The notes: a model not told the origin generated them from the letters alone. A DNA stretch of 64,000 nucleotides from an uncultured Hyphomicrobiales bacterium (GCA_964464375.1 CAYXFU010000016.1:15074-79073); one strand, 5' to 3'; positions 2,859-60,093 are shown, numbered from the stretch's first letter. A program made the numbers and translations.

Positions 2859-4763
2859 TTATTTAATTTTCACAAATTTCCCGACTTTATCTCCAATCCG
2901 CACAAAATACATCCCAGTAGTTAGAGAAGTGACATTGATTTGTAGGGGTTCAAAATTTTGAACCCCTACAGTCATTACAGTTTGACCGAATACATTGAAG
3001 ATACAGATACCCTCAGATGGACTCCACTTGGCAAGTGGAGCCCATCTTCTCATATCGATTTCTACGAAATCTGATGCTGGATTGGGTGAAAGAATAAAAG
3101 ACTCTGCACTTTTGATATCCGATACATCTGTGATTAAATGAATAGATAATCTGGCTCTTTGAGGTGTCTTACATTCAGTTGTTAAACTTTGTGCTTCAAT
3201 ATAAACAACTGTATCTTTATAAACATATAATGAGAAATAATTTCTTGCTGACTGAAGCAGATTACCACCAACAGGTGAATCATACAGATAAAATGTTGAA
3301 TTTTTGGGAGACAAAGGTATTATTGAAATGTCCTGTTTTTTAATAAGCACAGTATCATTTACTAATACAGGTATTCCAGGATACACTTTAATAGATGTTT
3401 GATTTTCTTCCCCGATTGAAACAGGGTCGGTACTCCTAACTCTGATTTTGTAACTCTCACCTTCTGTAACATCTGAAGGTATTCCTACCTTAATTTTGCC
3501 TTGATAAATACTTTTGCTTTTACCTATAATTTTGACATTTGATGACCATGAACCGTTTGTGTCTGACAATTCTGCAATAAATTCATTTCCTGTTTTATAT
3601 AGTATATAAGTTTTGAAAGCCAGATCAAAGCTATCTCCAGGGCAAAATTGAAGTTTCATTGGCTTGGGGTCATCTGTATTAATTGTTAGCTTTTTGTTCC
3701 TGTAATAAATAATATAAAATTCTTTTATTGTTGTATCACTAATTACAAATTGATGTCTTGAAGGCTGGATTTGTGCTATTTCCCTCATGTCTGATTTGAA
3801 TTTGGAATTTGAATCAAGACTTTCATATAATAAAAATGTTGAATTTTGTGGGAAATTAATATCTTCATATTCTAATTTCAGTGGATAATCTGTTGCCTTA
3901 GAAAAGAACTTTACATGATAAATAAGAGGTGTAGATTCGTTTTTAAATTCTCTGATATCTCTAGAATTTGAATATGGTTTCTCGTCATTAGGGGCAATAT
4001 CGTATATTCCGTATTCTAAAGTATATGGAAGACTATCTATATAAAACCTGGCTTGAAAATTACGCATAATATAGTCAAAAGGACCTTCAGCATAACATGT
4101 ATCAGCATTCATACTTGCTCTGTAATGTGATCCAAATATCAGATTTGTTGTATCTATATTTTTTGAAACTAAAAATAACTCAATACCGGGTTTTGAAGTT
4201 GAATCAAACCATTCATAAGGATTATAGAAAATCCAAATCGGTACATCAACATTGACATAACCGCTGTCATTTAATTCTTTTGCAGTAAATAATAAATTTG
4301 CTGTATAATAGCCGGGTTTCATTGTTTTTGGAGGGATAAATTTCAAATCCAAATCTAAATAATTACCTTTTGTTAGGTTGAAAACATTACCACTAGTTAC
4401 ATAATTTGGAAAGGGATTCTGCTTTCCGGCTCCGGCAACTGATTTGAATACCAAGTATGGCTGATCGGAGCTAATCAGCATTGATTCGATCTTGGATGTA
4501 TCAGTTTTCAAGCTGATATTCATTATGCCGGAATGGGTATTACCTGTTCCTGAATCGGATGAAAATGGATTCCTGATTGAATAAGAATAAAGAGAGTTCT
4601 TCATTGTCGTTGGCAACCAACCAGTTTTTCTGTCAATGTTAAACATTAATTCTGCATTTGATGAGATTTTAGCCGAATTGTTATCCATTGCAGTAATAGA
4701 TTGAGCTGATGTGAGAGCATATCCCAGTAGGGTGACAATAACTATTAAGTATTTCATCTTCAT
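2859..4763 (-). CDS. Secreted protein with T9SS C-terminal sorting domain
   Basis: signal peptide; C-terminus SPNPASDFVEIDMRRWAPLAKWSPSEGICIFNVFGQ..GMYFVRIGDKVGKFVKIK. Confidence 0.6.
   Translation of the reverse strand: MKMKYLIVIVTLLGYALTSAQSITAMDNNSAKISSNAELMFNIDRKTGWLPTTMKNSLYSYSIRNPFSSDSGTGNTHSGIMNISLKTDTSKIESMLISSDQPYLVFKSVAGAGKQNPFPNYVTSGNVFNLTKGNYLDLDLKFIPPKTMKPGYYTANLLFTAKELNDSGYVNVDVPIWIFYNPYEWFDSTSKPGIELFLVSKNIDTTNLIFGSHYRASMNADTCYAEGPFDYIMRNFQARFYIDSLPYTLEYGIYDIAPNDEKPYSNSRDIREFKNESTPLIYHVKFFSKATDYPLKLEYEDINFPQNSTFLLYESLDSNSKFKSDMREIAQIQPSRHQFVISDTTIKEFYIIYYRNKKLTINTDDPKPMKLQFCPGDSFDLAFKTYILYKTGNEFIAELSDTNGSWSSNVKIIGKSKSIYQGKIKVGIPSDVTEGESYKIRVRSTDPVSIGEENQTSIKVYPGIPVLVNDTVLIKKQDISIIPLSPKNSTFYLYDSPVGGNLLQSARNYFSLYVYKDTVVYIEAQSLTTECKTPQRARLSIHLITDVSDIKSAESFILSPNPASDFVEIDMRRWAPLAKWSPSEGICIFNVFGQTVMTVGVQNFEPLQINVTSLTTGMYFVRIGDKVGKFVKIK
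3019..3043. repeat. In-frame 25-nt palindrome ggactccacttggcaagtggagccc inside the CTD coding region (encodes WAPLAKWSP); identical copy at 53907..53931
   Basis: palindrome seen directly; same sequence at the same CTD position in a second gene. Confidence 0.7.
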
Positions 4764-4774
4764 TTTATCCCATT

Positions 4775-5563
4775 TTACAATTTTATAAATTTCCCAACTT
4801 TATCCCCAATTCTCACAAAATACATCCCCGGAGGCAAACTGGAGATATCGATTCTTACTCCCTCCCTGCTCGCGGGGAGGGTTGGGGTGGGGTTAGGTGT
4901 GGCCTGTATTTCTCCCAGCACATTATATATACTCACGTCGCTTTGTAGGGGCGAACGGCCGTTCGCCCCTACGGATATTTCTATGAAATCTGTAGTTGGA
5001 TTAGGCGATACTTCAAAATCTTCTTTATTTTCTGGATTTTTTGATGGAACGTCCAAATTAGTATCCTCGTATCTTCTTAGATAATTGAAATTTGTAACAA
5101 GGCTTACATGTCCTATCTTATTTTCAACTGAATCTATGTTAGAATAATTCATCAGTCTTAGAAGCAAAACTCGTGGTAAAAATTTGGTGGTATCGGGTTC
5201 TTGAGGTAAATACTCCCTAAACCAAAATGTTCCATAAAGCGATTCAAAATGCTGAAATTCATTTTTTGTATTTAAATAGGTTGTAAGAATATCATGCCAT
5301 GTATATTCTATTATTGTGTCTTTTGGATAAATTCCAGATCTAGGAATAACATTATACTGAAATTCAACTCGAAAAATTTGTTTGGCATATAATTGTCCAA
5401 ATGTCGGTGACCAGTAACAGCTATCAACTTTGACCGAATCGGGATTTTGAAATCCCATCTTTTGATGCTTAAGTAGTTTTAGGCAACTGTCTGGTACTTG
5501 TGCATAATTTGCACCCAAACCAATAAAACTAAAATAAAGAAACATAAAGAATAATCTTTTCAT
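4775..5563 (-). CDS. Secreted protein with T9SS C-terminal sorting domain
   Basis: signal peptide MKRLFFMFLYFSFIGLGANYAQ; C-terminus SPNPTTDFIEISVGANGRSPLQSDVSIYNVLGEI..GMYFVRIGDKVGKFIKL. Confidence 0.6.
   Translation of the reverse strand: MKRLFFMFLYFSFIGLGANYAQVPDSCLKLLKHQKMGFQNPDSVKVDSCYWSPTFGQLYAKQIFRVEFQYNVIPRSGIYPKDTIIEYTWHDILTTYLNTKNEFQHFESLYGTFWFREYLPQEPDTTKFLPRVLLLRLMNYSNIDSVENKIGHVSLVTNFNYLRRYEDTNLDVPSKNPENKEDFEVSPNPTTDFIEISVGANGRSPLQSDVSIYNVLGEIQATPNPTPTLPASREGVRIDISSLPPGMYFVRIGDKVGKFIKL
4858..4881. repeat. In-frame GC hairpin ccctccctgctcgcggggaggg at a second variable site of the CTD (between NVLGEI and IDISSL)
   Basis: inverted repeat seen directly; the analogous site in the 53712 gene and the 52735 fragment carries a different hairpin, cctctcctttccaaggagggg. 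Confidence 0.55.
4945..4972. repeat. Perfect 28-nt palindrome gtaggggcgaacggccgttcgcccctac, in-frame in the CTD (encodes VGANGRSPL); related copies at 23153..23180 and 52927..52954
   Basis: perfect palindrome seen directly; recurs in orphan CTD copies. Confidence 0.75.
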
Positions 5564-5596
5564 TTTTGTAGCCTCATAAAAATTTATCCATTATTA

Positions 5597-5625
5597 ACCC
5601 CAACTTAAGCATGGGGTTAATAAAT
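5597..5625 (-). terminator. Hairpin ttaacccca..tggggttaa between the 5706 and 4775 genes, possible terminator
   Basis: 9-bp stem; weak T-tract. Confidence 0.35.
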
Positions 5626-5705
5626 TCTTTTAGTTTATTAACCTCAGTGAATAACTTAACACATTTAACTCAAAAAAGTTACATAGAATACCAAAATTTC
5701 TTCGA

Positions 5706-6497
5706 TTATCTAGAAAGATAAATTCTCTTGCGGATTAGTTTTTCCTTACCAATACGGACTTCGCCGACATAATCGCCAACGGGCAGTAGTCTTCCCGAAT
5801 CATCGCGTCCGTTCCATGTGTAAGTGAAGTCGCCGGGGCTCTGGATTCCGTCGAACATTGTAGCGATGATCACCGCATTCATAGAATAGACAACAACCTG
5901 CACTCTGGTTCTATATTCTAATGTATATTTCATTACGGGCGAAACATCCTCAACTAGTCCGAGAAAACTCCCAATCATTGAAAAAGGAATTTTAAGTCCA
6001 TTGGGGTTATAAAGAGTTGTGTTATTATAGGTCGATGCCTGCTGTAGATTGTATTCATGCTGGAACATCTCTCTAGCCGATGGTTTGAAGTATTCCGGAG
6101 GTATGTCGAGATTCTCACGGATTCTTTCGTATGGAGAATATGGTTTTTTAGCTACTGTAGGTAAATATTGGGAAAACATTCTGAGGTCATTGTTTAGCCT
6201 TGTCGAAAGTGGGATTCTCAATCGCAAAGCTCTTGTATAATTGCTGTCCTGAAACATTGATGTAGGTCTGCCGAATGCTCCGGGCATAGCATCCAATTTA
6301 GTTTTGACAGTGTCAATCTTTATTGTATCGCCTTTTAATATCTGAAGCGGAGTGAAGTTATTATCCTTGAGAATAACCTTAGAACTATCAGCTCCTGTTT
6401 TAAGGGCAAATGAAGAATTTGTGAATATAAAAAGGAACACAATGGCACTTAAAATAAAATGCAGATTTGACAGAGTATGTTTGATTTGACCGGACAT
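5706..6497 (-). CDS. Hypothetical secreted or membrane-anchored protein with C-terminal FlgD-Ig-like motif (FTYTWNGRDDSGRLLPVGDY)
   Basis: N-terminal hydrophobic segment; C-terminal motif. Confidence 0.35.
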   Translation of the reverse strand: MSGQIKHTLSNLHFILSAIVFLFIFTNSSFALKTGADSSKVILKDNNFTPLQILKGDTIKIDTVKTKLDAMPGAFGRPTSMFQDSNYTRALRLRIPLSTRLNNDLRMFSQYLPTVAKKPYSPYERIRENLDIPPEYFKPSAREMFQHEYNLQQASTYNNTTLYNPNGLKIPFSMIGSFLGLVEDVSPVMKYTLEYRTRVQVVVYSMNAVIIATMFDGIQSPGDFTYTWNGRDDSGRLLPVGDYVGEVRIGKEKLIRKRIYLSR

Positions 6498-7783: not shown

Positions 7784-7897
7784 AGTATCTATTCCATATT
7801 TTACGTTACATGTTTTATATAACGTAAATTATGGAATTATAGTTTATTTTGCAAATAAAAATGTATTTTTAGGGGTTAAGTTGCGGATAATTATCAA

Positions 7898-10800
7898 TCA
7901 CTCAGTGATTGCTTCAGTGAAGATATCCTTGGATGGAACTGTAAAATAGAAGCTGGTGCCTTTGCCCAATCTTGATTCAACCCGGATTTTTCCATGGTGT
8001 TTATCAACAAATTCCTTGCATAGAACAAGTCCAAGACCTGTGCCTGGTTCACCTTTTGTTCCGATAGATATTATTTTTTCGTCTATCTTGAAGAGTTTCC
8101 GTCGTATCTCATCAGTCATGCCAATGCCATCGTCTTTGATGCAGATTTCCACCATATCATTATCGAGAACTACAGAAGTGATGTCAATATGCCCGCCTTC
8201 ATTGGTGAACTTCAGTGCATTCGAAACAAAATTGCGGACGATTGTGTTTATCATATTGAGGTCAGCAAAGATAAAAATATTCTCGTCAGAGTTATTTAAT
8301 AATTCTATTTTTTTGGTTGAGGCATTCGACATCAGAATATCCATCGGAATATCTATAGCATCCCGTAAGGAGAGATTTTCGGGATTGAACGGGATAGCAC
8401 CATTCTGAATCCTTGACCATTCAAGAAGATTATTGAGCAGGCGATTCAATCTGTTGGCATTAATATTCAGCTCCGACAGGAATTCACTTAACTCTGTAAA
8501 GCTAAGGTTATAGACTTCCTTTGTCATCATTTCTGTTAACATCAGGAACGAAGACAATGGACTTCTAAGGTCGTGGGCAATAATTGAAAAGAATCTATCC
8601 TTGCTTGCATTGAGCTCCTTCAGCTGAGTTGAAGATTCCGACAGTGAAAGATTGAGTTCCTGAACCACTTTCGCTTCTTCTTCTATTTTGTCATGTGAAA
8701 TCTGAAGCTCATCGATCAGCTTTATTTTCTCATTCTCATGGATTTTATCTATTGTAACGTCCTGTATAAAGCCCATTAATTTGTTTGCTTTGTTATTCTC
8801 ATCGAACAGGACTTCATTGGAAGTGATAACGTAGCGGACAGAACCATCAACCCGGATAATTCTATGTTCAAATTCAAACATTCCTGAACCTGAAATTGAG
8901 TCTTCAATTCTGCTAGTATATTCTTCAAGATCATCGGGATGAATAAACTTCTTCATAATTTCGTTTGAAGGCTCTATCTCGCCAACCATCAAGCCGTAAA
9001 TTCTATAAATCTCATCGGACCAGTAAGATTCACCAGATTTGAGATTTACCTCCCAGCTTCCCAGATGAGCAAGTTTTTCTGAGTAAAGGAGGCGCTTTTC
9101 ATTATTCTTCAGAATTTCCTCAAACCGTTTTGCTTCAGTTACATCATGTCCAATTGCTTCATAGGTACGCACATACTTGCTTTCATCTCTCACCGGAATA
9201 AAAGTGAATTCCATCAATTTGTGCTGACCTTTTCTCGTTATCCATGTCAGAAGCTGGTTTTTGACGATTTTTTTTCCGCTCTTCAGCATTTCGATTATAT
9301 TTATGCTGGTTTCTATCGAATCCGGATGAAGAATTTTGAAGGATAGACTCGAATCTTCCTGGAATTCCGATAGTCTGTATCCGAGTAATTGCTCAGCGGC
9401 AGGGTTCAGAAATATAATCTGACCAGTATCAGCTTCCGCTCTGTATATAGCTTCACCTGCGTTGAGTGTTAATCGCTCATAAGTATCACTCAATTCTCTT
9501 AGCTTGTTCTTTAATTTCTTGCTTTCGGTTCTGTCTATTATTGTTATCAGTCCATGCGGAGTATTGTTCTTTGTGAAAGGAACAATAATATAATCCAGCC
9601 AGATTTCGCGACCGTCGTAGCTTTCTGATAGAATCTCGCCGTAAGCTTTTTTGTCGGTTTCCATAACAAACTTAAATTCATCGTAGATAGTCGATGTGAG
9701 GCAGATTATACTTTCCTTGAGAGTCAGTTTCTGCATTTTGTCGAGCTCTATACCAAGTATCTTGCAAAAAGAGGTGTTTACAAATACGCAATCACCATTA
9801 CAGTTGTAAGCCGCTTTACCCAAAGGAGATGCTTCAATAATTTTGATGTTAAGATCGAGTTCATCCTGGATTTTCTTCTCAAGAATTTTTCTTTCGGTGA
9901 TATCTCGTGCAATACCTGTCGTACCAAGAACATTCCCATCGTTATCGATAATTGGTGCATTATGAATTTCAATCCAGCTGTCTTCACCGTTTATCTCTAA
10001 ATGTTCTTCTGTACTTATCTTTTTTCCCTGCGTCATAACTTCGATGTCGTTCTGAAGATGCCGGTAAGCCAAATCATCAGGGAAGACATCGTGATCGTTT
10101 TTCCCGATTAATTTATCGGGATCCTTTTCGGGACTAAGCTCAGCAAGAGTCTTATTCACGAGAAGATACTTTCCTTCTTCGTCCTTAAACCAGGAATAAA
10201 ATGGTAGGTTATCAAAGATTGCCCGAAAATGTGCTTCTTTAACCCTCAGATCATTTTCCGTTTTAAGTCTCTCTGATATATTTCTTGAAATACTGAGAAT
10301 CACTTCTCTGCCATTGAGTTCGATAATACTGCTCTTAGCTTCAACCGGAATAATCTCGCCGGATTTATTCACATGGAATGAATCGAACACAATCACGCGA
10401 TTCTCAATGAGCTGAGCTAATTTCTGCGGACGAATCTCCTGAATATGCTGTGGCATAAAGTCATAGAGAGTTGAGCTTGTCAGGACTTCATAACTGCATC
10501 CAAAATGCTGAGTGGCGGCATAGTTAGCCTCGATTATTCTGCCATCGAATTCGTGAATCAGCACGGGATCGAGCAGGTTGTCCAGAATTGCCTTGAAGTA
10601 GTTTCGTGCAGAACGCAGTTCTTTTTCTATATTAATAAGTTTAGTGATGTTACGGCAAACAATAATTGTAGCTTTATAAGTTCCATTTTCGTCAAGATCG
10701 GGTGTGGCTGCAATAGATAGAATCCTACTTTCACCGTTTGGGCGGATAATTTGCAATTGGTAATTACTGCTTTCGCCACGTTTACGCTTTTCAGTTTCTT

Positions 10801-11090: not shown

Positions 11091-11155
11091 GTCATTCCTG
11101 CACATGCAGGAATCTCGTAAAGTTAGAGAGATTCCGGGACAAGCCCGGAATGACA
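11091..11155. repeat. 65-nt hairpin repeat bounded by GTCATTC...GAATGAC (attcctgcacatgcaggaat + ttccgggacaagcccggaa)
   Basis: inverted termini and internal palindromes; member of a dispersed repeat superfamily. Confidence 0.6.
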
Positions 11156-11414
11156 CGATGATATTATTTTTCATCTATGTTATCATCTTGGTATCGGACT
11201 CAGAAATTCGTACAATTTCAGTCTAATCTAATATAATCGACAATATAAGGAATATATTGAGAGAGTGTGGAAAAAAAATCAGAATTTTTTGAATAATTTA
11301 ACCAAATTGTTCTATTGTGAATGGTTAGATGGGATTGCATCTAAAATGGATAAATATTAAACCCAGATAGTGCATTGGAACGTTTTCTATTCTTTGAAAA
11401 CGCTGTTCTGTCAT

Positions 11415-11460
11415 GTCATTCCTGCAATCACAAAGTAACAGCGAAGCTAATGCAGGAATC
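11415..11460. repeat. Partial copy of the same repeat family (gtcattcctgca...tgcaggaatc)
   Basis: shared terminus and stem sequence. Confidence 0.5.
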
Positions 11461-11581
11461 TTTTTTTGGTAAGAAAAGCATAGATTCCCGCCTTGTCTGG
11501 AATGTCATAATCAATAAATTGCAACGCCTGTATTAGCCCCCTTTTTTCAAAGGAAGTTTGGGGGTTTCTCCGGAATAATTC

Positions 11582-23008: not shown

Positions 23009-23190
23009 CTAAAGCTTCACAAACTTCCCGACTCTCTCCCCAATCCTCAAAAAATACATACCCGGAGCTAAGCCTGAAACATCGACTCGTTTGGGCAATT
23101 CATGAATTGCCCCTACAGACAATACAGTTTGACCATAAACATTGATTATTTTGTAAGGGCGAACGGCCGTTCGCCCCTACGAAAATTTGT
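23009..23190 (-). pseudogene. Decayed tandem copy of the CTD 3' end of the adjacent 23361..24602 gene (..VGANGRSPLQ, frameshift, NVYGQTVLSVGAIHELPKRVDVSGLAPGMYFLRIGERVGKFVKL*)
   Basis: two-frame translation; no start codon or gene body; contains palindrome 23153..23180. Confidence 0.6.
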
Positions 23191-23264: not shown

Positions 23265-23288
23265 GTCATACCTGCGTATGCAGGTATC
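23265..23288. repeat. Small hairpin of the repeat superfamily (gtcatacctgcgtatgcaggtatc)
   Basis: palindrome with GTCAT terminus. Confidence 0.45.
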
Positions 23289-23360: not shown

Positions 23361-24602
23361 TTATAACTTCACGAATTTACCGACTCGATCCCCAATCCTC
23401 ACAAAATACATCCCCGGAGCTAAACCGGAAATGTCTATCCGTAGGGGTAATTCATGAATTTCCCCAACAGACAATACAGTTTGACCATAAACATTGAAGA
23501 TTTTGAATTCGCTTTGTTCGGACACGGCACGCCGTGTCCCTACGGATATTTCAATGAAATCGGATGCGGGATTGGGAGAAATAGAAAAATTAAAGTCGTT
23601 AATTGTTTCTTGAATACCAGTTATACTTTTTAAACTGATTAGACTTATATATTCAGAATTACTTATAACTAAATAATTGCTATCTGATGTAAACTTAGCA
23701 TATAAAGCTCTTAGACTTGTTGATGCGATAACAGTACCATCATTAATATCCCATATTAAAATAGGATCTAAACTCCAAAATACACCTGCAACAATAAATC
23801 TATTATTAGGTGATACAGATAATGAATATACTGCGCTACTTGTTTTGATATTTCTTAATAGAGACCTGCTCTTTGTATCACATACATTAACTCCACTTGT
23901 ATTGTTATATTTAAAATAATCGCAAACAAATTTAGAGCCGTCATTATTAAATGTAGCATAATATGATGAACCCTCGTCTTTAATTACGATGGAATCAGTT
24001 TGTAGATCGGTTAATGAGGCAGGAGTAAATCTTGTTGCTACGGCTAAATATCTATCATCTTTAGAAAATTCGATAAAATTGGGTTGTTGTCTTTCCATCC
24101 ATTCACCTATCAAGCATGGATATTGTTTATAGATTTCATCAGTTTGGAAATTTCTTATAATTACGCCTTTCTCCATTAAAGAATAAGCTAAATACTTATT
24201 ATCATGGGAGAGCGCAGCATAAAATGATCCACTAGATAAATTAACCTTTATTTCTTTAACTAAAACCCATGTTTTCGTATCCCAAACAGTTAATTTACCA
24301 TAGTTTCCATCATCAGAACCAGTAGCAATGAGAAATGAACCGTCATAAGAATATTTTACAGCAAATAATGTATAATCACAGACTTTTATTTGCTTGAATA
24401 TAGTTCCAGTTAAAAGATTAACAATTCTTATTGTTCCATCTTTTCCGCTTAATGAAATAAATTTATTGTCTGGTGAGACGTCGAAATAAGAAGAAATACC
24501 AAATTCATTTCTCCAAACCACACTAGAGTCAAGTGATATTTGGCTCTTTACATTTGCAATAAAGAAGATGAAGAAGAGTAGAATAAGAATGAATTGTTTC
24601 AT
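23361..24602 (-). CDS. WD40/beta-propeller-like secreted protein with T9SS CTD
   Basis: signal peptide; C-terminus SPNPASDFIEISVGTRRAVSEQ..GMYFVRIGDRVGKFVKL; in-frame palindrome ggacacggcacgccgtgtcc at 23516..23535. Confidence 0.6.
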   Translation of the reverse strand: MKQFILILLFFIFFIANVKSQISLDSSVVWRNEFGISSYFDVSPDNKFISLSGKDGTIRIVNLLTGTIFKQIKVCDYTLFAVKYSYDGSFLIATGSDDGNYGKLTVWDTKTWVLVKEIKVNLSSGSFYAALSHDNKYLAYSLMEKGVIIRNFQTDEIYKQYPCLIGEWMERQQPNFIEFSKDDRYLAVATRFTPASLTDLQTDSIVIKDEGSSYYATFNNDGSKFVCDYFKYNNTSGVNVCDTKSRSLLRNIKTSSAVYSLSVSPNNRFIVAGVFWSLDPILIWDINDGTVIASTSLRALYAKFTSDSNYLVISNSEYISLISLKSITGIQETINDFNFSISPNPASDFIEISVGTRRAVSEQSEFKIFNVYGQTVLSVGEIHELPLRIDISGLAPGMYFVRIGDRVGKFVKL

Positions 24603-26828: not shown

Positions 26829-27116
26829 CTAATACCACTCTTCACTTAAATCATTCCAATTAGGATTATTACCTTCAATCAATTTAATTTTTTTTACTCT
26901 TGAATATCCTTTAATATGCTTTTCTCTGACAATAGCAGATTCAATATTTCCACAGTCTTCAAGGAATACTAGTTGATGAACAGAATATTTGGAAGTAAAA
27001 CCTTCAAATAAATTATTTTTATGTTCATAGACTCTTTTTAATAAATTAGATGTTACACCTGTGTAAAGTGTTCCATTTTTTTGCGAAGCCATAATATATA
27101 CAAACCCGTTTTTCAT
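26829..27116 (-). CDS. GIY-YIG nuclease-superfamily small protein
   Basis: GFVYIMASQKNGTLYTGVTSNLLKRVYEH (GIY..YIG motif), 95 aa. Confidence 0.7.
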   Translation of the reverse strand: MKNGFVYIMASQKNGTLYTGVTSNLLKRVYEHKNNLFEGFTSKYSVHQLVFLEDCGNIESAIVREKHIKGYSRVKKIKLIEGNNPNWNDLSEEWY

Positions 27117-36410: not shown

Positions 36411-36516
36411 CATGAATACTATATTGCCACATTTTCTACAAATCCTTATGGGATTATTATAAAACTTCCGAGAAAACCCAAACCCCTTTGAAAAAGGGGG
36501 CTAATACATTCTTTGT

Positions 36517-36672
36517 AAATCAATGAATAGCCACGAGCTTTAGCTCGTGGTGAAAAGAAAAAATGATTTTATTTGGGGATTTATCCCCACAAAAAGAGTG
36601 ATTTCGACTAAAGTCAATGAAAATAATTAGGAATCTTCCACGAGCTAAAGCTCGTGGCTATTGATTCCATCA
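36517..36672. mobile_element. MITE-like element: ~33-nt terminal inverted repeats (each containing the palindrome ccacgagctttagctcgtgg) flanking a ~90-nt AT-rich core with hairpin ggggatttatcccc
   Basis: caatgaatagccacgagctttagctcgtgg at 36517.. and its reverse complement at 36640..36672; no ORF. Confidence 0.4.
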
Positions 36673-37017
36673 TATTTTATGAGAACGCACCAGCCCTTCT
36701 TGTTCCAAGGGGGATTAAGGGGGTTTCCGTTATTCATTTTTATATTCAAATATCGCTTTCATTAGCTTTTCACCGCTAATAGATATCTTAATCACTTCCA
36801 TGGAAGAATGAGGACGATGTAAACAGGTGCTTTTTTCATGATATTACCGATCTTAAATTTATATGAACAATTTAACATCAAAGAACTTGGTGGTGGCGAA
36901 TTCCTATCGCCACCACCATCTATCATCGCCAAACACTTTATTTGGATTCTGCTGTCAATTGTCTTCTTTTGAAATGCTAATCCGGAGTTTGCATAGCATA
37001 TTCTTGCCATATTCAAT

Positions 37018-52734: not shown

Positions 52735-52988
52735 TTACAGCTTTATAAACTTTCCGACTCTGTCCCCAGTCCTCACAAAATACATTCCAGGAGCCAAACC
52801 GGAGACATCGATTCTTGCTTTTTCCTCTCCTTTCCAAGGAGGGGTGTCACGATTGCGAAGCAACGGCGAAGCCCACTCCGGGGTGGTCTTGATTTCTCCA
52901 AGAACATTATATATCATCACCTCGCTTGTAAGGGCGAAGGACAGTTCGCCCCTACGGAAATTTCTATAAAATAAGAACTAGGATTGGG
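52735..52988 (-). pseudogene. Stand-alone frameshifted T9SS CTD cassette (..TPNPSSYFIEISVGANCPSPLQAR* then MMIYNVLGEIKTTPEWASPLL..GMYFVRTGDRVGKFIKL)
   Basis: two-frame translation gives a complete ~80-aa CTD with no gene body; ~150 nt near-identical to the 3' end of the 53712 gene; palindrome at 52927..52954. Confidence 0.6.
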
Positions 52989-52996
52989 AGTGACAA

Positions 52997-53308
52997 TTAA
53001 TTAATATCAATTCCGGTTCTCAGAATTTCCTGAATAAAAGGATCCCCTTTATAAAAATATTCAGTTGGGAATGTTTGTGCATCAATATCGAGATAGTTTT
53101 TTGTTATAGGTGCTATCATTAGAGCATTTTCGAATCTGTCACTCGTGAATTGACTTGAAACTAATGCCAGATCGATGTCTGTATTATCATTGTTTATATC
53201 TTTGGCAAGAGAACCAAAAAGAATTACCCGATCGAAAACCAAGTTGATTTTTCGGCATTCATCGATAAACTCCTTTGTTATATCTATTGCATTTTGTCTA
53301 GTAAGCAT
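52997..53308 (-). CDS. Nucleotidyltransferase (MNT antitoxin)
   Basis: ILFGSLAKDINNDNTDIDLALV. Confidence 0.7.
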   Translation of the reverse strand: MLTRQNAIDITKEFIDECRKINLVFDRVILFGSLAKDINNDNTDIDLALVSSQFTSDRFENALMIAPITKNYLDIDAQTFPTEYFYKGDPFIQEILRTGIDIN

Positions 53309-53676
53309 TTTCTGATTTCACCAGCTTTTTGAATTAATTCTTTTGTTTTTTCTGTGGTTGTTGTTTTGTAAATATTGCCCAAATAGTCGGGATATCGACC
53401 TTCCAGATTATAGACGTTGAATGCCTTTAGAAAAACAATCATATCGTCATCAAATTCAATATTAGTAAAAGATAAAAGTTTCACAATATCATGCGTTTTG
53501 GGAGGATAAATTTCATCAGTAAATCGTACATATATTGCTTTACTGATTTTTTCCATTGTCAAATGAACAAAAAATAATGCTTGTACAAATTTCCCGCCAT
53601 CCAATAATAAGGTTACTGATTCCCAGTCGCTTTGAGCAGAATCAATCCAATACGCAATATGTTCCTGTTTTGTCAT
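53284..53676 (-). CDS. HEPN-domain protein (toxin partner of MNT)
   Basis: size and helical pattern; 25-nt overlap with the NTase gene. Confidence 0.6.
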   Translation of the reverse strand: MTKQEHIAYWIDSAQSDWESVTLLLDGGKFVQALFFVHLTMEKISKAIYVRFTDEIYPPKTHDIVKLLSFTNIEFDDDMIVFLKAFNVYNLEGRYPDYLGNIYKTTTTEKTKELIQKAGEIRKCLLDKMQ

Positions 53677-53711: not shown

Positions 53712-54950
53712 TCAATATTTTATAAACTTCCAGATCTTATCCCCAATCCTCACGAAATACATACCCGGAGCCAAACCGGAGACATCGATTCTTGCTTTTT
53801 CCTCTCCTTTCCAAGGAGGGGTGTCACGATTGCGAAGCAACGGCGAAGCCCACTGCGGGGTGGTCTTGATTTCTCCAAGAACATTAAAGATTCTTATCTC
53901 AACAGATGGACTCCACTTGGCAAGTGGAGCCCATCTTGCCAAGTCGATTTCTATAAAGTCCGTGGCGGGATTAGGGAAAATATAATTATCTTTAACATTA
54001 ATATTATCATCAAATCCAGATTGTAGTGGTGAAGTTGCAACAACCAGATTATCGATCCACATAGTCTGTTCAATGGGAGAGCCATCGCCAATATAGGGAG
54101 CAATCAGGAACTGATTGAGCTTCATATCGGGGAATTGTGCTGTTCTGAATATAATATTATCATAACTTATCAAAATCTTGGAATCGTACCAGTATCTGAT
54201 CTTCCCGTCAGTAACTCCTTTACCGCCTTGAATACTATTCAGCTTAAAATATGCTTCCACATGATGCCAGTCATTCTTGTAGTTGAGTCCCTGTGCGTCT
54301 GTGAAATAAACTGTGTCGGCATCCCATATTCTTGCACTATAATAGTATCCACCGCCATAGTTGAAGCAATCGCTTCTATCGAAACCACCCTCGATACCAT
54401 TGCATGCGGCTATGGAACGATTCTCGGAGAACTTATAGCTATTAAAATCTCCATCGCAGCCGATAAAATTACCGTTGTTCTGCAAGATACACGTCTGATC
54501 TACATTCTTGCTGTCCTGAAGTGCAAGCAGGGGCTTACCCTCATTCTGTTCGATATATAAAGTTAGATGAGTGATTGCCGGACCGACATATTTATCATCA
54601 GCATTTGTCATAATATTAAATTCATGAGGATGATACGGCTTGTTCGAGCCTTCCCAGTTTGCACTATACTTCACCCAATAGCTTACGTAGAGTTCATCTG
54701 TTTCGGTGAACAGATGACGGCTGGGGGTCCCTGCGGCGCATCCTCTCTGCCCCTGCAGGAATTTACACTCGAAGCAGGCAGTACTCCCATTGATATGCTC
54801 AGCCGTTGAAATTGTCCCTTTAGACGCATCGTACCACCCACGCAAAGCAAAGTCATTATCATCAAAATTCTCAATAAAGAGAATGGTTTGAGCTAATAGA
54901 GCTACAAAACCAAAAGTGCTTATAAACAATATGATGAATAATGTTCTCAT
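53712..54950 (-). CDS. Secreted protein with T9SS CTD carrying two in-frame hairpins (WAPLAKWSP palindrome 53907..53931; cctctcctttccaaggagggg 53801..53821)
   Basis: signal peptide; C-terminus FPNPATDFIEIDLARWAPLAKWSPS..NVLGEIKTTPQWASPLLRNRDTPPWKGEEKARIDVSGLAPGMYFVRIGDKIWKFIKY. Confidence 0.55.
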   Translation of the reverse strand: MRTLFIILFISTFGFVALLAQTILFIENFDDNDFALRGWYDASKGTISTAEHINGSTACFECKFLQGQRGCAAGTPSRHLFTETDELYVSYWVKYSANWEGSNKPYHPHEFNIMTNADDKYVGPAITHLTLYIEQNEGKPLLALQDSKNVDQTCILQNNGNFIGCDGDFNSYKFSENRSIAACNGIEGGFDRSDCFNYGGGYYYSARIWDADTVYFTDAQGLNYKNDWHHVEAYFKLNSIQGGKGVTDGKIRYWYDSKILISYDNIIFRTAQFPDMKLNQFLIAPYIGDGSPIEQTMWIDNLVVATSPLQSGFDDNINVKDNYIFPNPATDFIEIDLARWAPLAKWSPSVEIRIFNVLGEIKTTPQWASPLLRNRDTPPWKGEEKARIDVSGLAPGMYFVRIGDKIWKFIKY

Positions 54951-54963
54951 AGGCTTTTCAACT

Positions 54964-57900
54964 TTATAACTTTATGAACTTTTGAACTGATGTTGCAATC
55001 CTAACAAAATAGACTCCTGACACTAATCCAGAGACATCGATCTTAACTCCCTCTACAAGAATGGAGAGGGTCGTGGTGAGGTTGATCTTTTTCCCATAAA
55101 TATTATAAATTTCAAAACTCAAACCTTCATCAATCTCGAATCCCTTCGCAAATACTATATTCAGCTCATCTATCACAGGATTTTCTGTAATTGTAAATTC
55201 AACAGGATTTATAAGTTGTATTCTGGCTATGTTAGGTTGACAGATGCCGGATACTTTGATGCTTCCATTTGTGATTTTGTTGATTATATCCTTGTCGCTC
55301 CATTCAAAATTTATTATTTCAATGGGTGTTATATCTCTATCCCCGATGAAGATCTGACCACAGATTTCACCGATTTTGGTTGGATTTTCTGTTAATTGAA
55401 TGTTGTCTCCGATCAGTTCTATTGTTCGTTTGCCGGATACTATTGTACCTTTGTTGGTTGTAGGGTTCATAACGGAAGCATCGAGTGTGATTACTGCTTT
55501 GTAGCTTACTTTGTCATCGTAAGGTTCGTTATCATCCTTCTTAGCCATTAGCGGAATGCAGAAATTCAGTTGTCCTATTTTTGCAGACATATCAGGTATC
55601 CAGACTGATGTGCTGATCTGTGTTTTGATGCTGTCTGACGCTGAGCCTTTGACTGCAATTAATAAAGACTGAACACACGGCTCGGTTATATCAATTATTA
55701 GTGAGTCCAGATATGATTTTGAATCAGTTGGCAGATAATCTATTTCGATATTTATTGATTCATTTTGAGCGAGTGTTTTTGGTGGCACAGGTGTTGGCTT
55801 AGCGGTGAAAGTATTTGCTTCAAGTCCCTTTATCTTTATGCTGAAGATTGTGACCTGTTGTGTATTTGTGTTCTTCAGTTCAATATTCTTTTTGCTTGTG
55901 GAGTTAACTTTCCTAGTACCGAAGTCAATATCAGTCAGCTGAATGACATCTGGTTTAAATTCAGTTATGGTGGTTGTTGCAGTTCCTTCGCATCCGTTAG
56001 TGTCGGTAACCGTCACGGAATAAATACCCGGATTTGATATAGAAATTGATTTTGTCGTTTCAGCTGTGTTCCAGAGATATGATTGAAAATCGTTTTGGAC
56101 AAGCAGGATGCTTGTCCTACCGGGACATAGGAATAAATCGCCTGATATTATCGGCTTTGGTTCTGCAACCTGAATTATATCAATTATTTCCGATGTTCCT
56201 TCGCATCCACCGTCATCTTTAACGTGAACTGAGTACTTTCCGGGTTTTGTGATCGTTATTGATTTTGTTGTTTCACCTGTGTTCCAGAGGTAAGATGTAT
56301 AGTTGTACTCTGTAGTTAGGTTCAAAGATCCATTTGGACAGAGAATTCCATTGTTACTAATTATCACAATTGGTTTCAGACTATCTACCAGTGTTACTTT
56401 CACTGTATCCGATATTGCTTTGCATCCGTTTATGTCAGTAACTTCTACATAGTAGTTTCCGGGTAGATTAACCGTTATGTTGTCTTCTGTGTTGCCTGTA
56501 CTCCAATTGTATGCGGTATATTTATCTTCTGTCGAGATGTTTAGTTTTGAGCCTGCACATAGTTCGGGGTTACGGCTCAGTTTAAGCTTTGGTGATATTT
56601 TGGGATAACTTTGAACGACTAAAGTGTCATATACCTCACAGCTACCGTTAATGCTTACCTTAACCCAATAAGTACCTGCTTTGTCTATGTCGATTTCTGA
56701 TGCTGTACTTCCATTTGACCACAAATATTTGTATGCATCATTTGGTGGCATTACTTTCAGTTTAGAGTTAATACCATCACATATCAAAGAATCACCCGAT
56801 ATATCAATGGTTATTGCTGGAAGCACATTTACCTCCACAGTGTCGCATCTGCTGCAGCCTGCATTATCAATTACGCAAAGAATATATTGGAATTTCCCGT
56901 TTGTATCCAAAGTTAGTTTGGGCGTTATAGAATTTGGATTGTCGAGTCCCTTAGACGGTGTCCATAAAATCGATTGAATTGGCTGAACACCACCGCTCAA
57001 CTGTCCTTTCAAATCGATTGTCGCATTGGTGCAGATATCAATATCAGGACCCGCAGAAATATTAATCTTTTGATGAATTCTAACAAAAAGCGAATCTGAT
57101 TTTGAACATCCGGCAGAATCAGTTACAGTTAATATATATTTCGTTGTCTTTTCCGGTGAAACGAGTGTGATTGCTGAATCAGGATCAACTATTCCTTCAG
57201 TTGGATTCCATTTATAGCGATATGGCGGAGTTCCTGATTTTGCTAAATTTCCTATAAATATCGATGAGCCGTAACAGATTGTTGTATCCTTGCCTGCCTC
57301 TATTTTAGGACCGATAACCTTTGCGACAAGGACTACAACCTTATTCCTGCCGCAACTATCGTAAACATCAATAAACTGAGTAAATGTTCCGGTATCTGCC
57401 GGAGCTGTAAATCTTACTTTTATTGCTTTAGTTTCATTAGCATTGAATTGTACAGAAGAAGGATTGCCCGATACGTAAGAAAACGGTGATTTTAAATCAT
57501 TAAAAGAAAATTTTGTACCAATAGTAGATTTGTTTTCTATATTAAAAATTGTGTCTTTTACAGAATTAGGGCATACAATTCCAAAATCAAGAGTATTAAA
57601 TCTCAATCCGCTTAACTTAAAAGATATACTGTCTTTAACTGCATTTAATGCAATACTAAATGGACTTTTAGGGGAATTATTTATAAGGTTTAAATTTGCA
57701 GATTTATTCCCCGATATTGATGACTTAAAACTAATTACAAACTTAGCAGAATCACCATACGGTATGATAATTGGCAATGCTGGTGAAATCAGAGAAAAGT
57801 CTGTAAAGTTAATTCCAGATGGATTTGAGTTTGATATTATTAGATCACAACCACCGGTATTCTTTACCCAAATAGAATCAAGCTCTGAATTTTCACAAAC

Positions 57901-60093
57901 TAAATTTTTAAATCTAAGATTTTTATTGGAAGAAATTCCAGGAGTAAGATATATTTGACTGAATTTTGTTACAAAACCATCATGTTGACCTTTTAGGGAA
58001 GTTTGAAATGCACCTGCTGTAACTGGATAATCATGGGAAAGGGTTGAGCCAGTGATATAAATATCATTCTTATTATCAATACAAATAGATGTTCCATACT
58101 CTCTATATGAACCAGAAATAAATGTTGAATAACTGAATTTTGAATCATTAAAATTCAATTTAAATAAAAAACAATCAGAGTAATAAGTCAATGGAGTAGT
58201 TTGATAAGCACATTGAATTATTGGGAAATCGTCAGAGATTGTATATCCTGTGATATATGGATTTTTCTCTGAATCCAATGCAATTGACAACCCATAATCA
58301 TCTTTTGAGCCACCTACAAAAGAAGAATATAAAATACTTGTGCCGGTATTATTGAATTTGGTGATAAAAGCTTCATTCATTTTCTTTTGTGTGGGTTGAA
58401 ATGAACCAGGTGTAGTTGGAAAATTAGGAGAAGCGGTACTTCCGGTGACAAAGGCATTTCCATTATTATCAACAACTACACCTGAAATTTGATCTGTACC
58501 TGAGCCACCAAGATAAGATGAATACAAAGCATCTGTGCCAGTTTGATTTAATTTAGTAATGAATCCGTCATGAGACCCACCGGCATAATTTATCTGAAAA
58601 GCTCCGGTTGTAGTAGGATAATCAGTAGTAGAAGTGTAGCCAGCAATATAAGCACATCCAAACGAATCAATTGTTAAGCTCAGCACAGATAGCCAATTTA
58701 ACAAAGATACCCCTAATTCTCCACCTAGAAATGTTGAATATATTAAACTTGTGCCTGTTGAATTACATTTAACTACGAACAAATCTGAAGAATTTCTTAA
58801 TGTTGTACGATAAGCACCGGAAGTAGTTGGAAAATCACTTGATAATGTTCCTCCTGTTATATATGAATTACCTGCAATATCTACAGATATGGAATTTCCC
58901 CAATCATCATTCAAACCGCCTAAAAAGGTTGAAAAAAGTAATGTAGAACCAGTAGAATTAAGCTTAGTAATAAATGCTTCAGTACCATTCCTTGTTTGGC
59001 GTAAAGCACCATTTGTTAAGGGGTAATTATCCGACCAGGTCGTACCAGTCATGTAAACATTTAAATTAGAATCGATTGCTAAACCTGCTCCCTCTTCTAC
59101 ATCATTACCACCGATAAATGTTGAAAATATAGGATATGTACCATTTACATTCATTTTTGTCACAAAATAATCAGCTATTACTCCTTTTGATGTATCAATA
59201 TTCGTTTGATATGCTCCTACTGTTGTTGGAAAATCTTTTGAATCGCTCTCTCCGCAAATATAAGAATTTGAATTTCTATCCACTACAATCCCATGTGGAA
59301 AATCTGGTCCAGATCCACCTAAATATGTAGAATACACCATTGGGTCAATTATCAAAGCTAAATCATGATTATAATCATCGATTTTGAAAGTGGCGGTTCC
59401 ATCGTAATTTAAAATAAAGCGGCAATCAACTTTGGTGCCTTCAGCAAGACTAAGCAATGCTTTGGGTTGATAAGCATAGATTTTATTATTGAGAACATTT
59501 CCTATGCTTGTACCAATAACCAATTCACCATTTTCATTGATTGCAAGGTTGTTCTGTCCTTCAAATTTCATCTTAATTTGAGATATATCTGCACCGGGAC
59601 TGACAATATAATCATATCTCAAACCAGCTAAAGTTTGTCCTTCTGTAGTTTTTGTATCAAAATAATATCTAATATCTATACCCTGATAAGCATCCTTTAC
59701 GATTACTTCTTTATACAGAGGCACAAATGAAGCCCATTTTGTAGAATCATTACCAATAAAGTAGTTATAATAAGTCTCCAGTTTTTCTTTGGTTAGATTA
59801 GTGCAGCTCTCATTTAAACCATCATATTTTAACCCAACAACATGACCTTTCAAAAACTTGTCTTCTATCTTGTTAAAGTCATAAACAACGCCGCTTTTGG
59901 TTATCCAGGCATTTATTCCATTCATCTTAGCAAGGAATTGTACTTCAGGATTCCACTGTCCTTTGTTTTCAATGAAGGAATTTGAATTGTTGATCTTTGA
60001 CAGGGTAGTCTCATCCATGCCGGTAAGCACAAGAGATGGATAGATGCAAATTAACAGGCAAATAAACAGATTTCTCATTTTCCGCCTCAGCAA
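54964..60093 (-). CDS. Giant (1709 aa) secreted adhesin-like protein: SBBP beta-propeller repeats + multiple Ig/PKD-like domains + T9SS CTD
   Basis: repeated ..GGSGxDxxxGIAVD..NVYVTGxTxSxDFP.. units; Cys-containing Ig-like repeats; C-terminus LVSGVYFVRIATSVQKFIKL. Confidence 0.7.
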   Translation of the reverse strand: MLRRKMRNLFICLLICIYPSLVLTGMDETTLSKINNSNSFIENKGQWNPEVQFLAKMNGINAWITKSGVVYDFNKIEDKFLKGHVVGLKYDGLNESCTNLTKEKLETYYNYFIGNDSTKWASFVPLYKEVIVKDAYQGIDIRYYFDTKTTEGQTLAGLRYDYIVSPGADISQIKMKFEGQNNLAINENGELVIGTSIGNVLNNKIYAYQPKALLSLAEGTKVDCRFILNYDGTATFKIDDYNHDLALIIDPMVYSTYLGGSGPDFPHGIVVDRNSNSYICGESDSKDFPTTVGAYQTNIDTSKGVIADYFVTKMNVNGTYPIFSTFIGGNDVEEGAGLAIDSNLNVYMTGTTWSDNYPLTNGALRQTRNGTEAFITKLNSTGSTLLFSTFLGGLNDDWGNSISVDIAGNSYITGGTLSSDFPTTSGAYRTTLRNSSDLFVVKCNSTGTSLIYSTFLGGELGVSLLNWLSVLSLTIDSFGCAYIAGYTSTTDYPTTTGAFQINYAGGSHDGFITKLNQTGTDALYSSYLGGSGTDQISGVVVDNNGNAFVTGSTASPNFPTTPGSFQPTQKKMNEAFITKFNNTGTSILYSSFVGGSKDDYGLSIALDSEKNPYITGYTISDDFPIIQCAYQTTPLTYYSDCFLFKLNFNDSKFSYSTFISGSYREYGTSICIDNKNDIYITGSTLSHDYPVTAGAFQTSLKGQHDGFVTKFSQIYLTPGISSNKNLRFKNLVCENSELDSIWVKNTGGCDLIISNSNPSGINFTDFSLISPALPIIIPYGDSAKFVISFKSSISGNKSANLNLINNSPKSPFSIALNAVKDSISFKLSGLRFNTLDFGIVCPNSVKDTIFNIENKSTIGTKFSFNDLKSPFSYVSGNPSSVQFNANETKAIKVRFTAPADTGTFTQFIDVYDSCGRNKVVVLVAKVIGPKIEAGKDTTICYGSSIFIGNLAKSGTPPYRYKWNPTEGIVDPDSAITLVSPEKTTKYILTVTDSAGCSKSDSLFVRIHQKINISAGPDIDICTNATIDLKGQLSGGVQPIQSILWTPSKGLDNPNSITPKLTLDTNGKFQYILCVIDNAGCSRCDTVEVNVLPAITIDISGDSLICDGINSKLKVMPPNDAYKYLWSNGSTASEIDIDKAGTYWVKVSINGSCEVYDTLVVQSYPKISPKLKLSRNPELCAGSKLNISTEDKYTAYNWSTGNTEDNITVNLPGNYYVEVTDINGCKAISDTVKVTLVDSLKPIVIISNNGILCPNGSLNLTTEYNYTSYLWNTGETTKSITITKPGKYSVHVKDDGGCEGTSEIIDIIQVAEPKPIISGDLFLCPGRTSILLVQNDFQSYLWNTAETTKSISISNPGIYSVTVTDTNGCEGTATTTITEFKPDVIQLTDIDFGTRKVNSTSKKNIELKNTNTQQVTIFSIKIKGLEANTFTAKPTPVPPKTLAQNESINIEIDYLPTDSKSYLDSLIIDITEPCVQSLLIAVKGSASDSIKTQISTSVWIPDMSAKIGQLNFCIPLMAKKDDNEPYDDKVSYKAVITLDASVMNPTTNKGTIVSGKRTIELIGDNIQLTENPTKIGEICGQIFIGDRDITPIEIINFEWSDKDIINKITNGSIKVSGICQPNIARIQLINPVEFTITENPVIDELNIVFAKGFEIDEGLSFEIYNIYGKKINLTTTLSILVEGVKIDVSGLVSGVYFVRIATSVQKFIKL

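Follow-up and report, generated by a model that had tools for sequence, protein, structure and literature searches.

In a 64,000-nt stretch of DNA from an uncultured Hyphomicrobiales bacterium (GCA_964464375.1, CAYXFU010000016.1:15074-79073; hereafter the window; G+C content 37%), four genes on the minus strand (2859..4763, 4775..5563, 23361..24602, and 53712..54950) encode at their extreme C-terminus a type-A C-terminal domain (CTD) of type IX secretion systems (T9SS). These CTDs carry short, GC-rich, in-frame DNA palindromes in two loops, which we interpret as probable elements of the repetitive extragenic palindrome (REP) kind. Coordinates refer to the plus strand, and the sense strand of the CTD genes is the minus strand. 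All four genes score above the curated cut-offs of PF18962 (35-43 bits; cut-off 27 bits) and TIGR04183 (23.8-35.3 bits; cut-off 23 bits). The palindromes, or modules, lie in a segment of the loop between beta1 and beta2 (S1) and in a segment of the loop between beta3 and beta4 (S2). An earlier note, made from the sequence alone, had reported in-frame palindromes in the four CTD genes, and this was borne out: all that it listed are present. Those at 4945-4972, 23153-23180, and 53801-53821 lie exactly where it placed them. Its element at 52927..52954 is off by 1 (52928-52955) and that at 23516..23535 is off by 4 (23520-23543); the S2 hairpins given at 4858..4881 and 52823..52843 are placed here at 4860-4881 and 52824-52844, and the 25-nt element given at 3019..3043 and 53907..53931 has a true length of 33 nt. 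Three S2 palindromes of the GTAG...CTAC type (2941-2970, which is perfect, 23441-23468, and 23093-23116) had been missed. Only two of the three orphan CTD copies claimed were found (23009-23180 and 52735-52993), and gene 54964, said to be free of palindromes, has an S2 hairpin of one of the module families at 55049-55070. The features are collected in Table 1.

Table 1. Type-A CTDs, orphan CTDs, and their palindromic modules in the window. HMM, hidden Markov model.
Feature	Position	Strand	Remarks
T9SS type-A CTD, gene 2859..4763	2859..3089	-	PF18962, TIGR04183; subfamily HMM 84 bits
S1 module AGATGGGCTCCACTTGCCAAGTGGAGTCCATCT, peptide RWAPLAKWSPS	3015..3047	-	33-nt palindrome, one G:T pair
S2 module TGTAGGGGTTCAAAATTTTGAACCCCTACA, peptide VGVQNFEPL	2941..2970	-	perfect double-foot GTAG...CTAC palindrome
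T9SS type-A CTD, gene 4775..5563	4775..5011	-	profile matches, subfamily HMM 122 bits; AlphaFold2 model
S1 module GTAGGGGCGAACGGCCGTTCGCCCCTAC, peptide VGANGRSPL	4945..4972	-	perfect 28/28 palindrome, its own reverse complement; double-foot REP
S2 hairpin CCCTCCCCGCGAGCAGGGAGGG, 7-bp stem, translated within TLPASREG	4860..4881	-	
T9SS type-A CTD, gene 23361..24602	23361..23582	-	profile matches, subfamily HMM 113 bits
S1 module GTAG+GGACACGGCGTGCCGTGTCC, peptide VGTRRAVS	23520..23543	-	canonical REP shape: unpaired GTAG foot, then 9-bp stem
S2 module GTTGGGGAAATTCATGAATTACCCCTAC, peptide VGEIHELPL	23441..23468	-	decayed copy of the GTAGGGGCAATTCATGAATTGCCCCTAC family
Orphan 5'-truncated CTD downstream of gene 23361	23009..23180	-	begins at its own S1 REP
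S1 REP of orphan 23009..23180	23153..23180	-	copy of the 4945-4972 element, 2 mismatches
S2 REP of orphan 23009..23180	23093..23116	-	GTAG...CTAC type
T9SS type-A CTD, gene 53712..54950	53712..53981	-	profile matches, subfamily HMM 103 bits
S1 module of gene 53712	53904..53936	-	same 33-nt palindrome AGATGGGCTCCACTTGCCAAGTGGAGTCCATCT as 3015-3047
S2 hairpin CCCCTCCTTGGAAAGGAGAGG	53801..53821	-	part of a compound insert translated TTPQWASPLLRNRDTPPWKGEEK
Orphan frameshifted CTD	52735..52993	-	S1, degenerate 28-mer at 52928..52955; S2 hairpin at 52824..52844
S2 hairpin CCCTCTCCATTCTTGTAGAGGG, CTD of gene 54964..60093	55049..55070	-	one mismatch to the family consensus CCCTCTCCATTCTTGGAGAGGG

The AlphaFold2 model of the CTD of gene 4775, made with an alignment of 24 relatives (mean predicted local distance difference test [pLDDT] 72.9, predicted template modeling score [pTM] 0.59), predicts seven strands at residues 9-13, 26-30, 35-37, 42-44, 51-55, 62-68, and 71-77. 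As modeled, a CTD with about seven strands fits the small beta-sandwich of the T9SS type-A sorting domain. The S1 module forms a low-confidence loop at residues 14-25 of the model and the S2 module another at residues 38-50, where the pLDDT falls below 50 at residues 45-48. The subfamily also includes members whose loops are short and free of hairpins (P0048, L199, and L186); the modules have therefore been added onto a fold that is intact.

When gene 4775 served as the query of a protein search, 48 proteins with unrelated passenger domains and the common CTD ending ...GMYFVRIGDKVGKFVKL were retrieved, which bear a small set of alternative S1 and S2 peptides in many combinations. Metagenome contigs were scanned with the CTD alignment to give 80 loci, in which a few lakes or sites predominate. 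With a profile, 126 CTD matches were found in the window and the 80 loci, 76 of them unique and full-length. Nearly all of the 76 have a hairpin at S1, S2, or both, and the hairpins fall into more than 15 sequence families. A perfect stem of at least 8 bp was present at S1 in 70% of these CTDs, compared with 0.3% of shuffled sequences and 1.6% of passenger-domain segments, and at S2 in 41%, compared with 0.8% of shuffled sequences; the figure for the 3' 60 nt of the CTD was 0%. Hairpins whose stem was 9 bp or longer, with a stem G+C content of at least 40%, occurred at 3.65/kb in CTDs versus 0.10/kb elsewhere, a 35-fold excess, and CTDs of other subfamilies on the same contigs had no such hairpins. 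In the window, all GTAGGGG/CCCCTAC heptamers (8/8) lie within CTDs or orphan CTDs, and no GTAG palindrome was found outside CTDs. The hairpins of the modules are stable (-13 to -24 kcal/mol), the AGATGGGCTCCACTTGCCAAGTGGAGTCCATCT module at 3015..3047 having an RNA fold energy of -23.7 kcal/mol. A wider search of 1.84 billion cluster representatives yielded 1,272 representatives of the subfamily at E <= 1e-10, and module peptides are common in the best 150. We conclude that the in-loop palindromes are real, statistically overwhelming, widespread, and more general than the earlier note saw. An assembly artefact was considered and rejected, as three assemblies made independently (the window, L001, and L002) have 99.98% identity and the same modules appear across many samples and in isolate genomes.

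The modules are units of DNA, not of protein. The nucleotide identity among copies of a given module is 88-99%, whereas that of the adjacent, protein-constrained 3' CTD backbone is only 57-77%. The earlier note had suggested that the palindromes may be nucleic-acid-level elements inserted in frame, and near-zero synonymous divergence within the modules agrees with this; the observation that it had named as speaking against such elements, the same peptide encoded by non-palindromic, synonymously diverged DNA, came out the opposite way. The edges of S1 are sharp: identity is 0.96 inside but only 0.63 and 0.58 in the two 12-nt flanks, the level of the distant backbone (0.65). In two lineage groups, CTD pairs with the same S1 module and those with different ones had nearly equal backbone identities (0.750 vs 0.755 and 0.685 vs 0.673). 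The idea that the modules were simply duplicated together with the CTD was rejected because of these sharp edges and because module sharing is independent of backbone identity. S1 and S2 modules were found in 34 different combinations, and some CTD sites hold compound modules, two in tandem. The GTAG shell is read in two frames, GTA GGG GCG (VGANGRSPL) and TGT AGG GGC (CRGEVTSPL); the third frame of this class, which contains TAG, was never seen. The CCCTCTCC...GGAGAGGG family also occurs in two frames, giving LTPALSIHGEG and SPQPSPFMERE. Asymmetric modules occur in one orientation only, although other combinations of orientation and frame are free of stop codons.

Orthologues bear different modules, in answer to a comparison that the earlier note had proposed. 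Different modules were found in pairs of proteins 58-64% identical overall, which were compared at the protein level (P0043, P0033, and P0048 among those considered), and in one 86%-identical orthologue pair. Two adjacent paralogues in L142 have near-identical flanks around an unrelated S2 cassette of about 55 nt, a hairpin in one and four TACTCAN heptamers in the other. In a search for near-identical CTD pairs differing in module, only these tandem paralogues reached a backbone identity of at least 88%. These results show that the modules behave as cassettes, independent of the CTD backbone.

The heptamer-repeat module, (TACTCAN)x4, is translated as HYSILTTQYS and stands at the S2 site of CTDs in L142 (8563), L139, L171, and L181. 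It replaces the hairpin at S2; therefore, the same slot takes both kinds of small repeat.

In the lineages sampled, the modules are nearly restricted to CTD loops. A census of 16 families, by fuzzy regular expressions allowing up to 2 mismatches, covered 616 kb of DNA, of which CTDs make up 4%. Of 227 close copies, 202 were in full CTDs, 7 in partial CTDs, and 7 within 300 nt 3' of a CTD; several of the remaining 11 lay at the edges of truncated CTDs. In L137, copies stand just 3' of a CTD stop codon.

Repeats, some of them related to the modules, were also seen between genes. Diverged intergenic relatives of the S1 family CCCCCTCTTGAAAAGAGGGGG+TTAGGGGG (CCCCCT...AGGGGG), which the strict census missed, are located in the window at about 36470-36500, 36694-36730, and 11537-11570. 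At 36531-36550, CCACGAGCTTTAGCTCGTGG is followed 87 nt away by its reverse complement CCACGAGCTAAAGCTCGTGG (36638-36657) with inverted flanks, forming an intergenic doublet that resembles a REPIN; the same family is found in L169 and L185. In L199, the doublet AACCTTCCGAAGGTT-N3-AACCTTCGGAAGGTT, followed by a run of T, lies downstream of two genes like an intrinsic terminator (7829-7868 and 10252-10290). The same AACCTTCCGAAGGTT/AACCTTCGGAAGGTT 'PSEG' doublet forms the S1 module PSEGWQPSEG in other CTDs, and the CTD of the second L199 gene has empty loops. An intergenic cluster of GTCATTCC...GGAATGAC palindromes (window 11094-11113, 11131-11151, about 11413-11460, about 11484-11506, and 23268-23287) is a repeat family distinct from the CTD modules and was never seen inside CTDs.

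The REPs of subclass 2.4 (Bertels group 4) of tyrosine transposases associated with REPs (RAYTs) are described as 'long canonical' and 'double-foot' REPs: they are long, the stem base has three G-C pairs, the upper stem is variable, and some bear two feet, GT[AG]G at the 5' end and C[TC]AC at the 3' end; in-frame insertion has been described for this subclass (Quentin et al. 2018, PMC6006769). A GTAG-tagged REP super-family and intragenic REPs have also been described (Di Nocera et al. 2013, PMC3733652). In the window, the GT[AG]G foot and the G-C pairs at the stem base were found at 4945-4972, 2942-2969, 23520-23543, 23153-23180, 23093-23116, and 23441-23468, and several module families have the double foot GTAGGGGC...GCCCCTAC with C[TC]AC at the 3' end. 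Judged by their sequences, the GTAG...CTAC modules match the double-foot REPs of subclass 2.4 feature by feature: the 5' foot, the three G-C pairs at the stem base, the variable upper stem, and the 3' foot.

The distribution of the 28-mer GTAGGGGCGAACGGCCGTTCGCCCCTAC points the same way. In a one-genome-per-species collection, at least 120 stretches carry an exact copy of the 28-mer; they represent at least 15 phyla, and the sequences around the copies are unrelated. Its hosts include Cyanobacteriota, Chloroflexota, Nitrospirota, Planctomycetota, WOR-3, Calditrichota, and Bipolaricaulota, as well as Gemmatimonadota, Latescibacterota, Omnitrophota, Spirochaetota, Bacteroidota, Deferribacteres, and Pseudomonadota. 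Four open reading frames (ORFs) above the Pfam Y1_Tnp cut-off contain it in frame (L006, L027, L077, and L104; their hosts are a Syntrophaceae, a WOR-3, a Wallbacteria, and a cyanobacterial genome), and these ORFs have the NH[ILF]H, WQRN, and YIxNNP motifs that are signatures of RAYT subclass 2.4. A fifth Y1_Tnp ORF, in L004, has the 28-mer at the extreme 3' end of its open frame. All five of these loci belong to other phyla, not to the genome of the window. The 28-mer also lies in frame, in both stop-free frames, in genes for MutS2, HsdM, a LUD-domain protein (two orthologues), HemD, a MurD-like protein, and a radical SAM protein; it gives the same peptide in the MutS2, HsdM, and RAYT genes. 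Among the matches listed, 48 of 125 copies are in open frames of at least 150 codons. The 28-mer is a REP by these sequence features, and in-frame insertion is already a known property of this class of elements. It had been proposed that absence from other genes would argue against a mobile element, and this does not hold: in this lineage the modules are nearly confined to CTDs, yet the same 28-mer is present in many unrelated genes of other phyla. The copy at 4945-4972 matches the cross-phylum consensus perfectly; this argues for a recent arrival or for constraint by a conserved binding protein, and leads us to expect a RAYT of subclass 2.4 in the whole genome.

Two further observations concern the 28-mer in other phyla. 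Heptamer tandem repeats directly adjoin it in cyanobacterial and Nitrospirota loci (L023, L062, L078, L079, and L095). In the cyanobacterial RAYT gene of L104 (3503-4084), three stacked REP-derived inserts (VGANVNNH, VGANDDH, and VGANGRSPL) follow the HUH strand, an arrangement that we liken to the tandem stacking in CTD loops.

The loops also coincide with junctions of mosaic CTDs. Gene 53712 and the orphan at 52735..52993 have 99% identity along a tract of about 140 nt whose start coincides exactly with the 3' edge of S1; identity is 75-80% on both sides of this tract, and the S1 modules themselves are unrelated. Gene 23361 and the orphan at 23009..23180 show the same pattern, with a tract of about 60 nt. 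A third mosaic involves gene 54964 and L190, which are 86% identical over a 1.1-kb BLASTN match in the passenger domain. When 54964-55191 was compared with L190 985-1290, identity was about 95% in the ~135 nt that lead up to the S1 position and about 60% beyond it, and the S2 modules differ. This drop at S1 indicates that the 3' two-thirds of the CTD was replaced. Neither gene 54964 nor L190 has an S1 palindrome; therefore, the loop position, and not only the palindrome, marks the junction. The earlier note had proposed the palindromes as the recombination substrate that produces the orphan cassettes. In three mosaics, two of which involve the orphan CTDs, the junction is indeed S1, but one of the three has no S1 palindrome, and the evidence for the palindrome as substrate is suggestive only. 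Orphan CTD fragments were also found in L193, L133, L177, L179, L160, and L197. L171 has a complete CTD gene with two orphan fragments in tandem after it (about 5400-5800); each of the two runs from 'MEISYSPSINRMV...' to '...LDVSSLQAWRF'.

From these results, we consider it probable, at about 0.62, that the modules are REP-type palindromes, seeded in two permissive loops within a single CTD subfamily and then exchanged as cassettes between paralogous CTDs. A REP-type hairpin would rarely be seeded into a CTD loop, and only inserts that are in frame and stop-free would survive. We infer that the insert is translated as a disordered loop. Removal of the CTD after export is established for type-A CTDs, and an insert would probably be discarded when the CTD is cleaved after secretion, at little cost to the cell. 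From one paralogous CTD to another, the insert would spread, or be replaced, as a discrete cassette, in register, in one orientation, and independently of the backbone. The likeliest route may be that the hairpin provokes breakage or stalls replication and that a short patch is then repaired on the template of another CTD copy; RAYT-type (HUH) cleavage at the feet would be an alternative. The single orientation of asymmetric modules and the concentration of close copies in full CTDs speak for templated spread. The loops would thereby act as recombination junctions and give rise to mosaic CTDs and truncated orphan copies.

Several points weigh against this interpretation. Classical REPs are mostly extragenic, with many dispersed copies, and about 90% of the close copies of the modules are inside one domain. 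Restriction to CTDs and a single orientation are not what random REP transposition followed by selection predicts. Ordinary gene conversion should carry flanks along, and no such signal was seen. The contrast between modules and their backbone or flanks is somewhat inflated, as the module families were defined by similarity and the flanks compared in ungapped windows. The pattern of S1 junctions would be explained equally well by heterology blocking a conversion tract. Many families have no GTAG foot (among them RWAPLAKW, AACC...GGTT, AACCGTATGGTTAACCATACGGTT, CCCTCTCC...GGAGAGGG, and AGATGGGCTCC), and these may be called REPs by analogy only. Pfam scans of 29 ORFs of the window, including the neighbors of the orphans, detected no transposase or recombinase. 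A regular expression for the HUH/W/Y motifs and a profile built from four RAYTs detected no RAYT in about 650 kb of contigs from the CTD lineage, the single weak hit reflecting only the shared VGTNGRSPL peptide. A RAYT is usually present in one copy per genome; therefore, a sample of about 650 kb cannot exclude a cognate RAYT.

A related and more tentative idea, doubtful though possible, is that the CTD loops are true landing pads, where hairpin cassettes are exchanged within coding sequence by a directed process. Such a process could be HUH/RAYT cleavage at the GTAG/CTAC feet and rejoining with another hairpin, or hairpin-specific breakage with very-short-tract repair. If so, a cleaved-off secretion signal would be the main niche and exchange platform of the REP-like elements of these bacteria, and the elements would drive the shuffling of CTD segments and hence the birth and decay of secreted proteins. 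In a variant of this idea, heterologous inserts may be kept as they break the homology among hundreds of CTD copies and thereby limit ectopic recombination.

Four other explanations are ranked below exchange of REP cassettes because of the points that count against each. The first dispenses with a mobile element: intrastrand template switching would make or perfect palindromes in place, and gene conversion among CTD paralogues would shuffle them. The 99% conversion tract of about 140 nt between gene 53712 and the orphan and the swapped CTD 3' part in the gene 54964/L190 pair are in line with this, as are the one orientation and frame of each module and the restriction of close copies to CTDs. 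However, an origin in place cannot yield a 28-mer of which identical copies are found in 15 or more other phyla and inside RAYT genes, shared modules carry no flanking sequence along, and related hairpins are also intergenic. This explanation is unlikely.

Selection for an mRNA-level structure, which the earlier note had also suggested, is quite improbable. Stable hairpins in the last 90-200 nt of CTD transcripts could act against 3' exonucleases, pause ribosomes, or tune expression. The fold energies of the modules and their position near the 3' ends of genes would suit such a role, as would the terminator-like hairpin doublet with a T run after two genes of L199 and the family members just 3' of CTD stop codons; moreover, many REPs have been argued to act as RNA (Di Nocera et al. 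2013, PMC3733652). On the sense strand, however, stem mismatches comprised 14 G:T versus 11 A:C (p = 0.69), showing no bias toward G:U-compatible pairs, and it is the sequence itself that is conserved, not pairing alone, unlike in a structured cis-acting RNA. Many palindromes are perfect through the center, which an RNA hairpin does not need, and no T run follows the elements inside genes. An Rfam scan of the window gave no match at the gathering score. In other phyla, the identical 28-mer is found irrespective of context and of its strand with respect to genes, and some CTDs of this subfamily (P0048 and L199) have empty loops.

A programmed cassette system like a shufflon or integron, with the orphans as silent cassettes and the palindromes as sites of a dedicated recombinase, has a very small chance of being correct. 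Orphan CTD fragments do recur beside CTD genes, their break points are at S1 or S2, and the palindromes could fold like attC sites. Against it, Pfam scans detected no recombinase or transposase gene near the window orphans, the orphans are frameshifted or truncated and co-oriented with the full gene, and the S1 modules of gene and orphan differ, leaving no matching sites. Least credible of all is selection for the loop peptides as alternative sorting or recognition tags that direct T9SS cargo to different fates: discrete classes recur across many unrelated passenger proteins with one fixed frame and orientation per module, but the peptides follow from the palindromes, synonymous sites are invariant, the same DNA shell gives unrelated peptides in two frames, both loops have low confidence in the AlphaFold2 model, empty-loop forms exist, and the peptide of the 28-mer is also found in MutS2, HsdM, and RAYT genes.

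In-frame REP insertion and the double-foot REPs of RAYT subclass 2.4 are known, and as in that subclass (PMC6006769) in-frame insertion in protein loops is tolerated here. The CTD modules differ from subclass 2.4 REPs in being massed in two loops of one secretion-signal domain; they neither flank a RAYT gene nor spread through intergenic DNA, and many have no GTAG foot. They share with the GTAG-tagged REPs (PMC3733652) short tagged palindromes, several families per genome, and single, dimeric, or clustered units. Intragenic in-frame insertions of those REPs encode roughly 10-30 residues, for example in Opitutus terrae and R. conorii (PMC3733652). They are scattered over unrelated genes, notably DNA repair genes, and that report describes neither recurrence at fixed positions of one domain family nor cassette-like replacement, in contrast to the CTD modules. 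Compound S1 and S2 modules resemble small clusters in which REP types stand side by side. Bacterial interspersed mosaic elements (BIMEs) of enterobacteria are such clusters of different REP types, and they are extragenic.

The earlier note had compared the modules with the Rickettsia palindromic elements (RPEs). The likeness holds for in-frame insertion, as RPEs are also palindromic, lie in frame in coding genes, and are tolerated on protein surfaces. RPE-1 is about 100-150 bp long, belongs to one lineage, and is not tied to one domain. The CTD modules are 20-33 nt long, belong to other families, and have no sequence in common with RPEs; the shared property is in-frame insertion only, and the right comparison is with the GTAG double-foot REPs of RAYT subclass 2.4. 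RPEs are translated, according to a study quoted in the GTAG-REP report (ref. 49 in PMC3733652). Small dispersed repeats of cyanobacteria, as cited in PMC3116915 (Elhai et al. 2008), are 21-27 nt long, seemingly mobile, and linked to heptamer tandem repeats. So far as that citation describes them, they resemble the 28-mer beside heptamer repeats and the heptamer module at S2. These repeats are not known to be linked to coding loops of a secretion domain. Literature searches with the 28-mer or the peptides, and for T9SS CTDs with palindromic repeats, returned nothing relevant. In the literature searched, we did not find a description of a T9SS CTD subfamily in which two fixed loops are systematically occupied, of confinement to CTD loops, of cassette-like turnover, or of loops that coincide with recombination junctions.

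How REPs move and what they target has been unsettled after decades of study, and most copies are intergenic, where their history is not preserved. Here, hundreds of REP-like hairpins occupy two slots of a conserved frame, so that a protein alignment serves as the reference for reading out insertion, replacement, frame, orientation, and junctions. Module turnover could be measured in metagenome time series, and cleavage chemistry could be tested on defined substrates. The proposed picture is one of a cleaved-off sorting signal that serves as harbor and exchange point for tiny repeat elements, in CTDs that evolve as mosaics with break points at the S1 and S2 loops. An additional 8-30 residues, whatever their sequence, are tolerated in the two loops, a property of use in engineering secretion tags. 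VGANGRSPL- or RGERPFAPT-like strings in predicted proteins of many phyla are translated REPs, which matters for annotation and homology searches.

Three neighboring features of the window should be mentioned. A free-standing ORF for a GIY-YIG nuclease (95 residues) is located at 26829-27116; no link to the palindromes was found. A HEPN and nucleotidyltransferase gene pair (52997-53676) lies between gene 53712 and its orphan CTD, and a RelE/MqsA-like pair (2229-2839) lies directly downstream of gene 2859. Such toxin-antitoxin cassettes beside CTD ends may have been integrated by recombination at CTD repeats.

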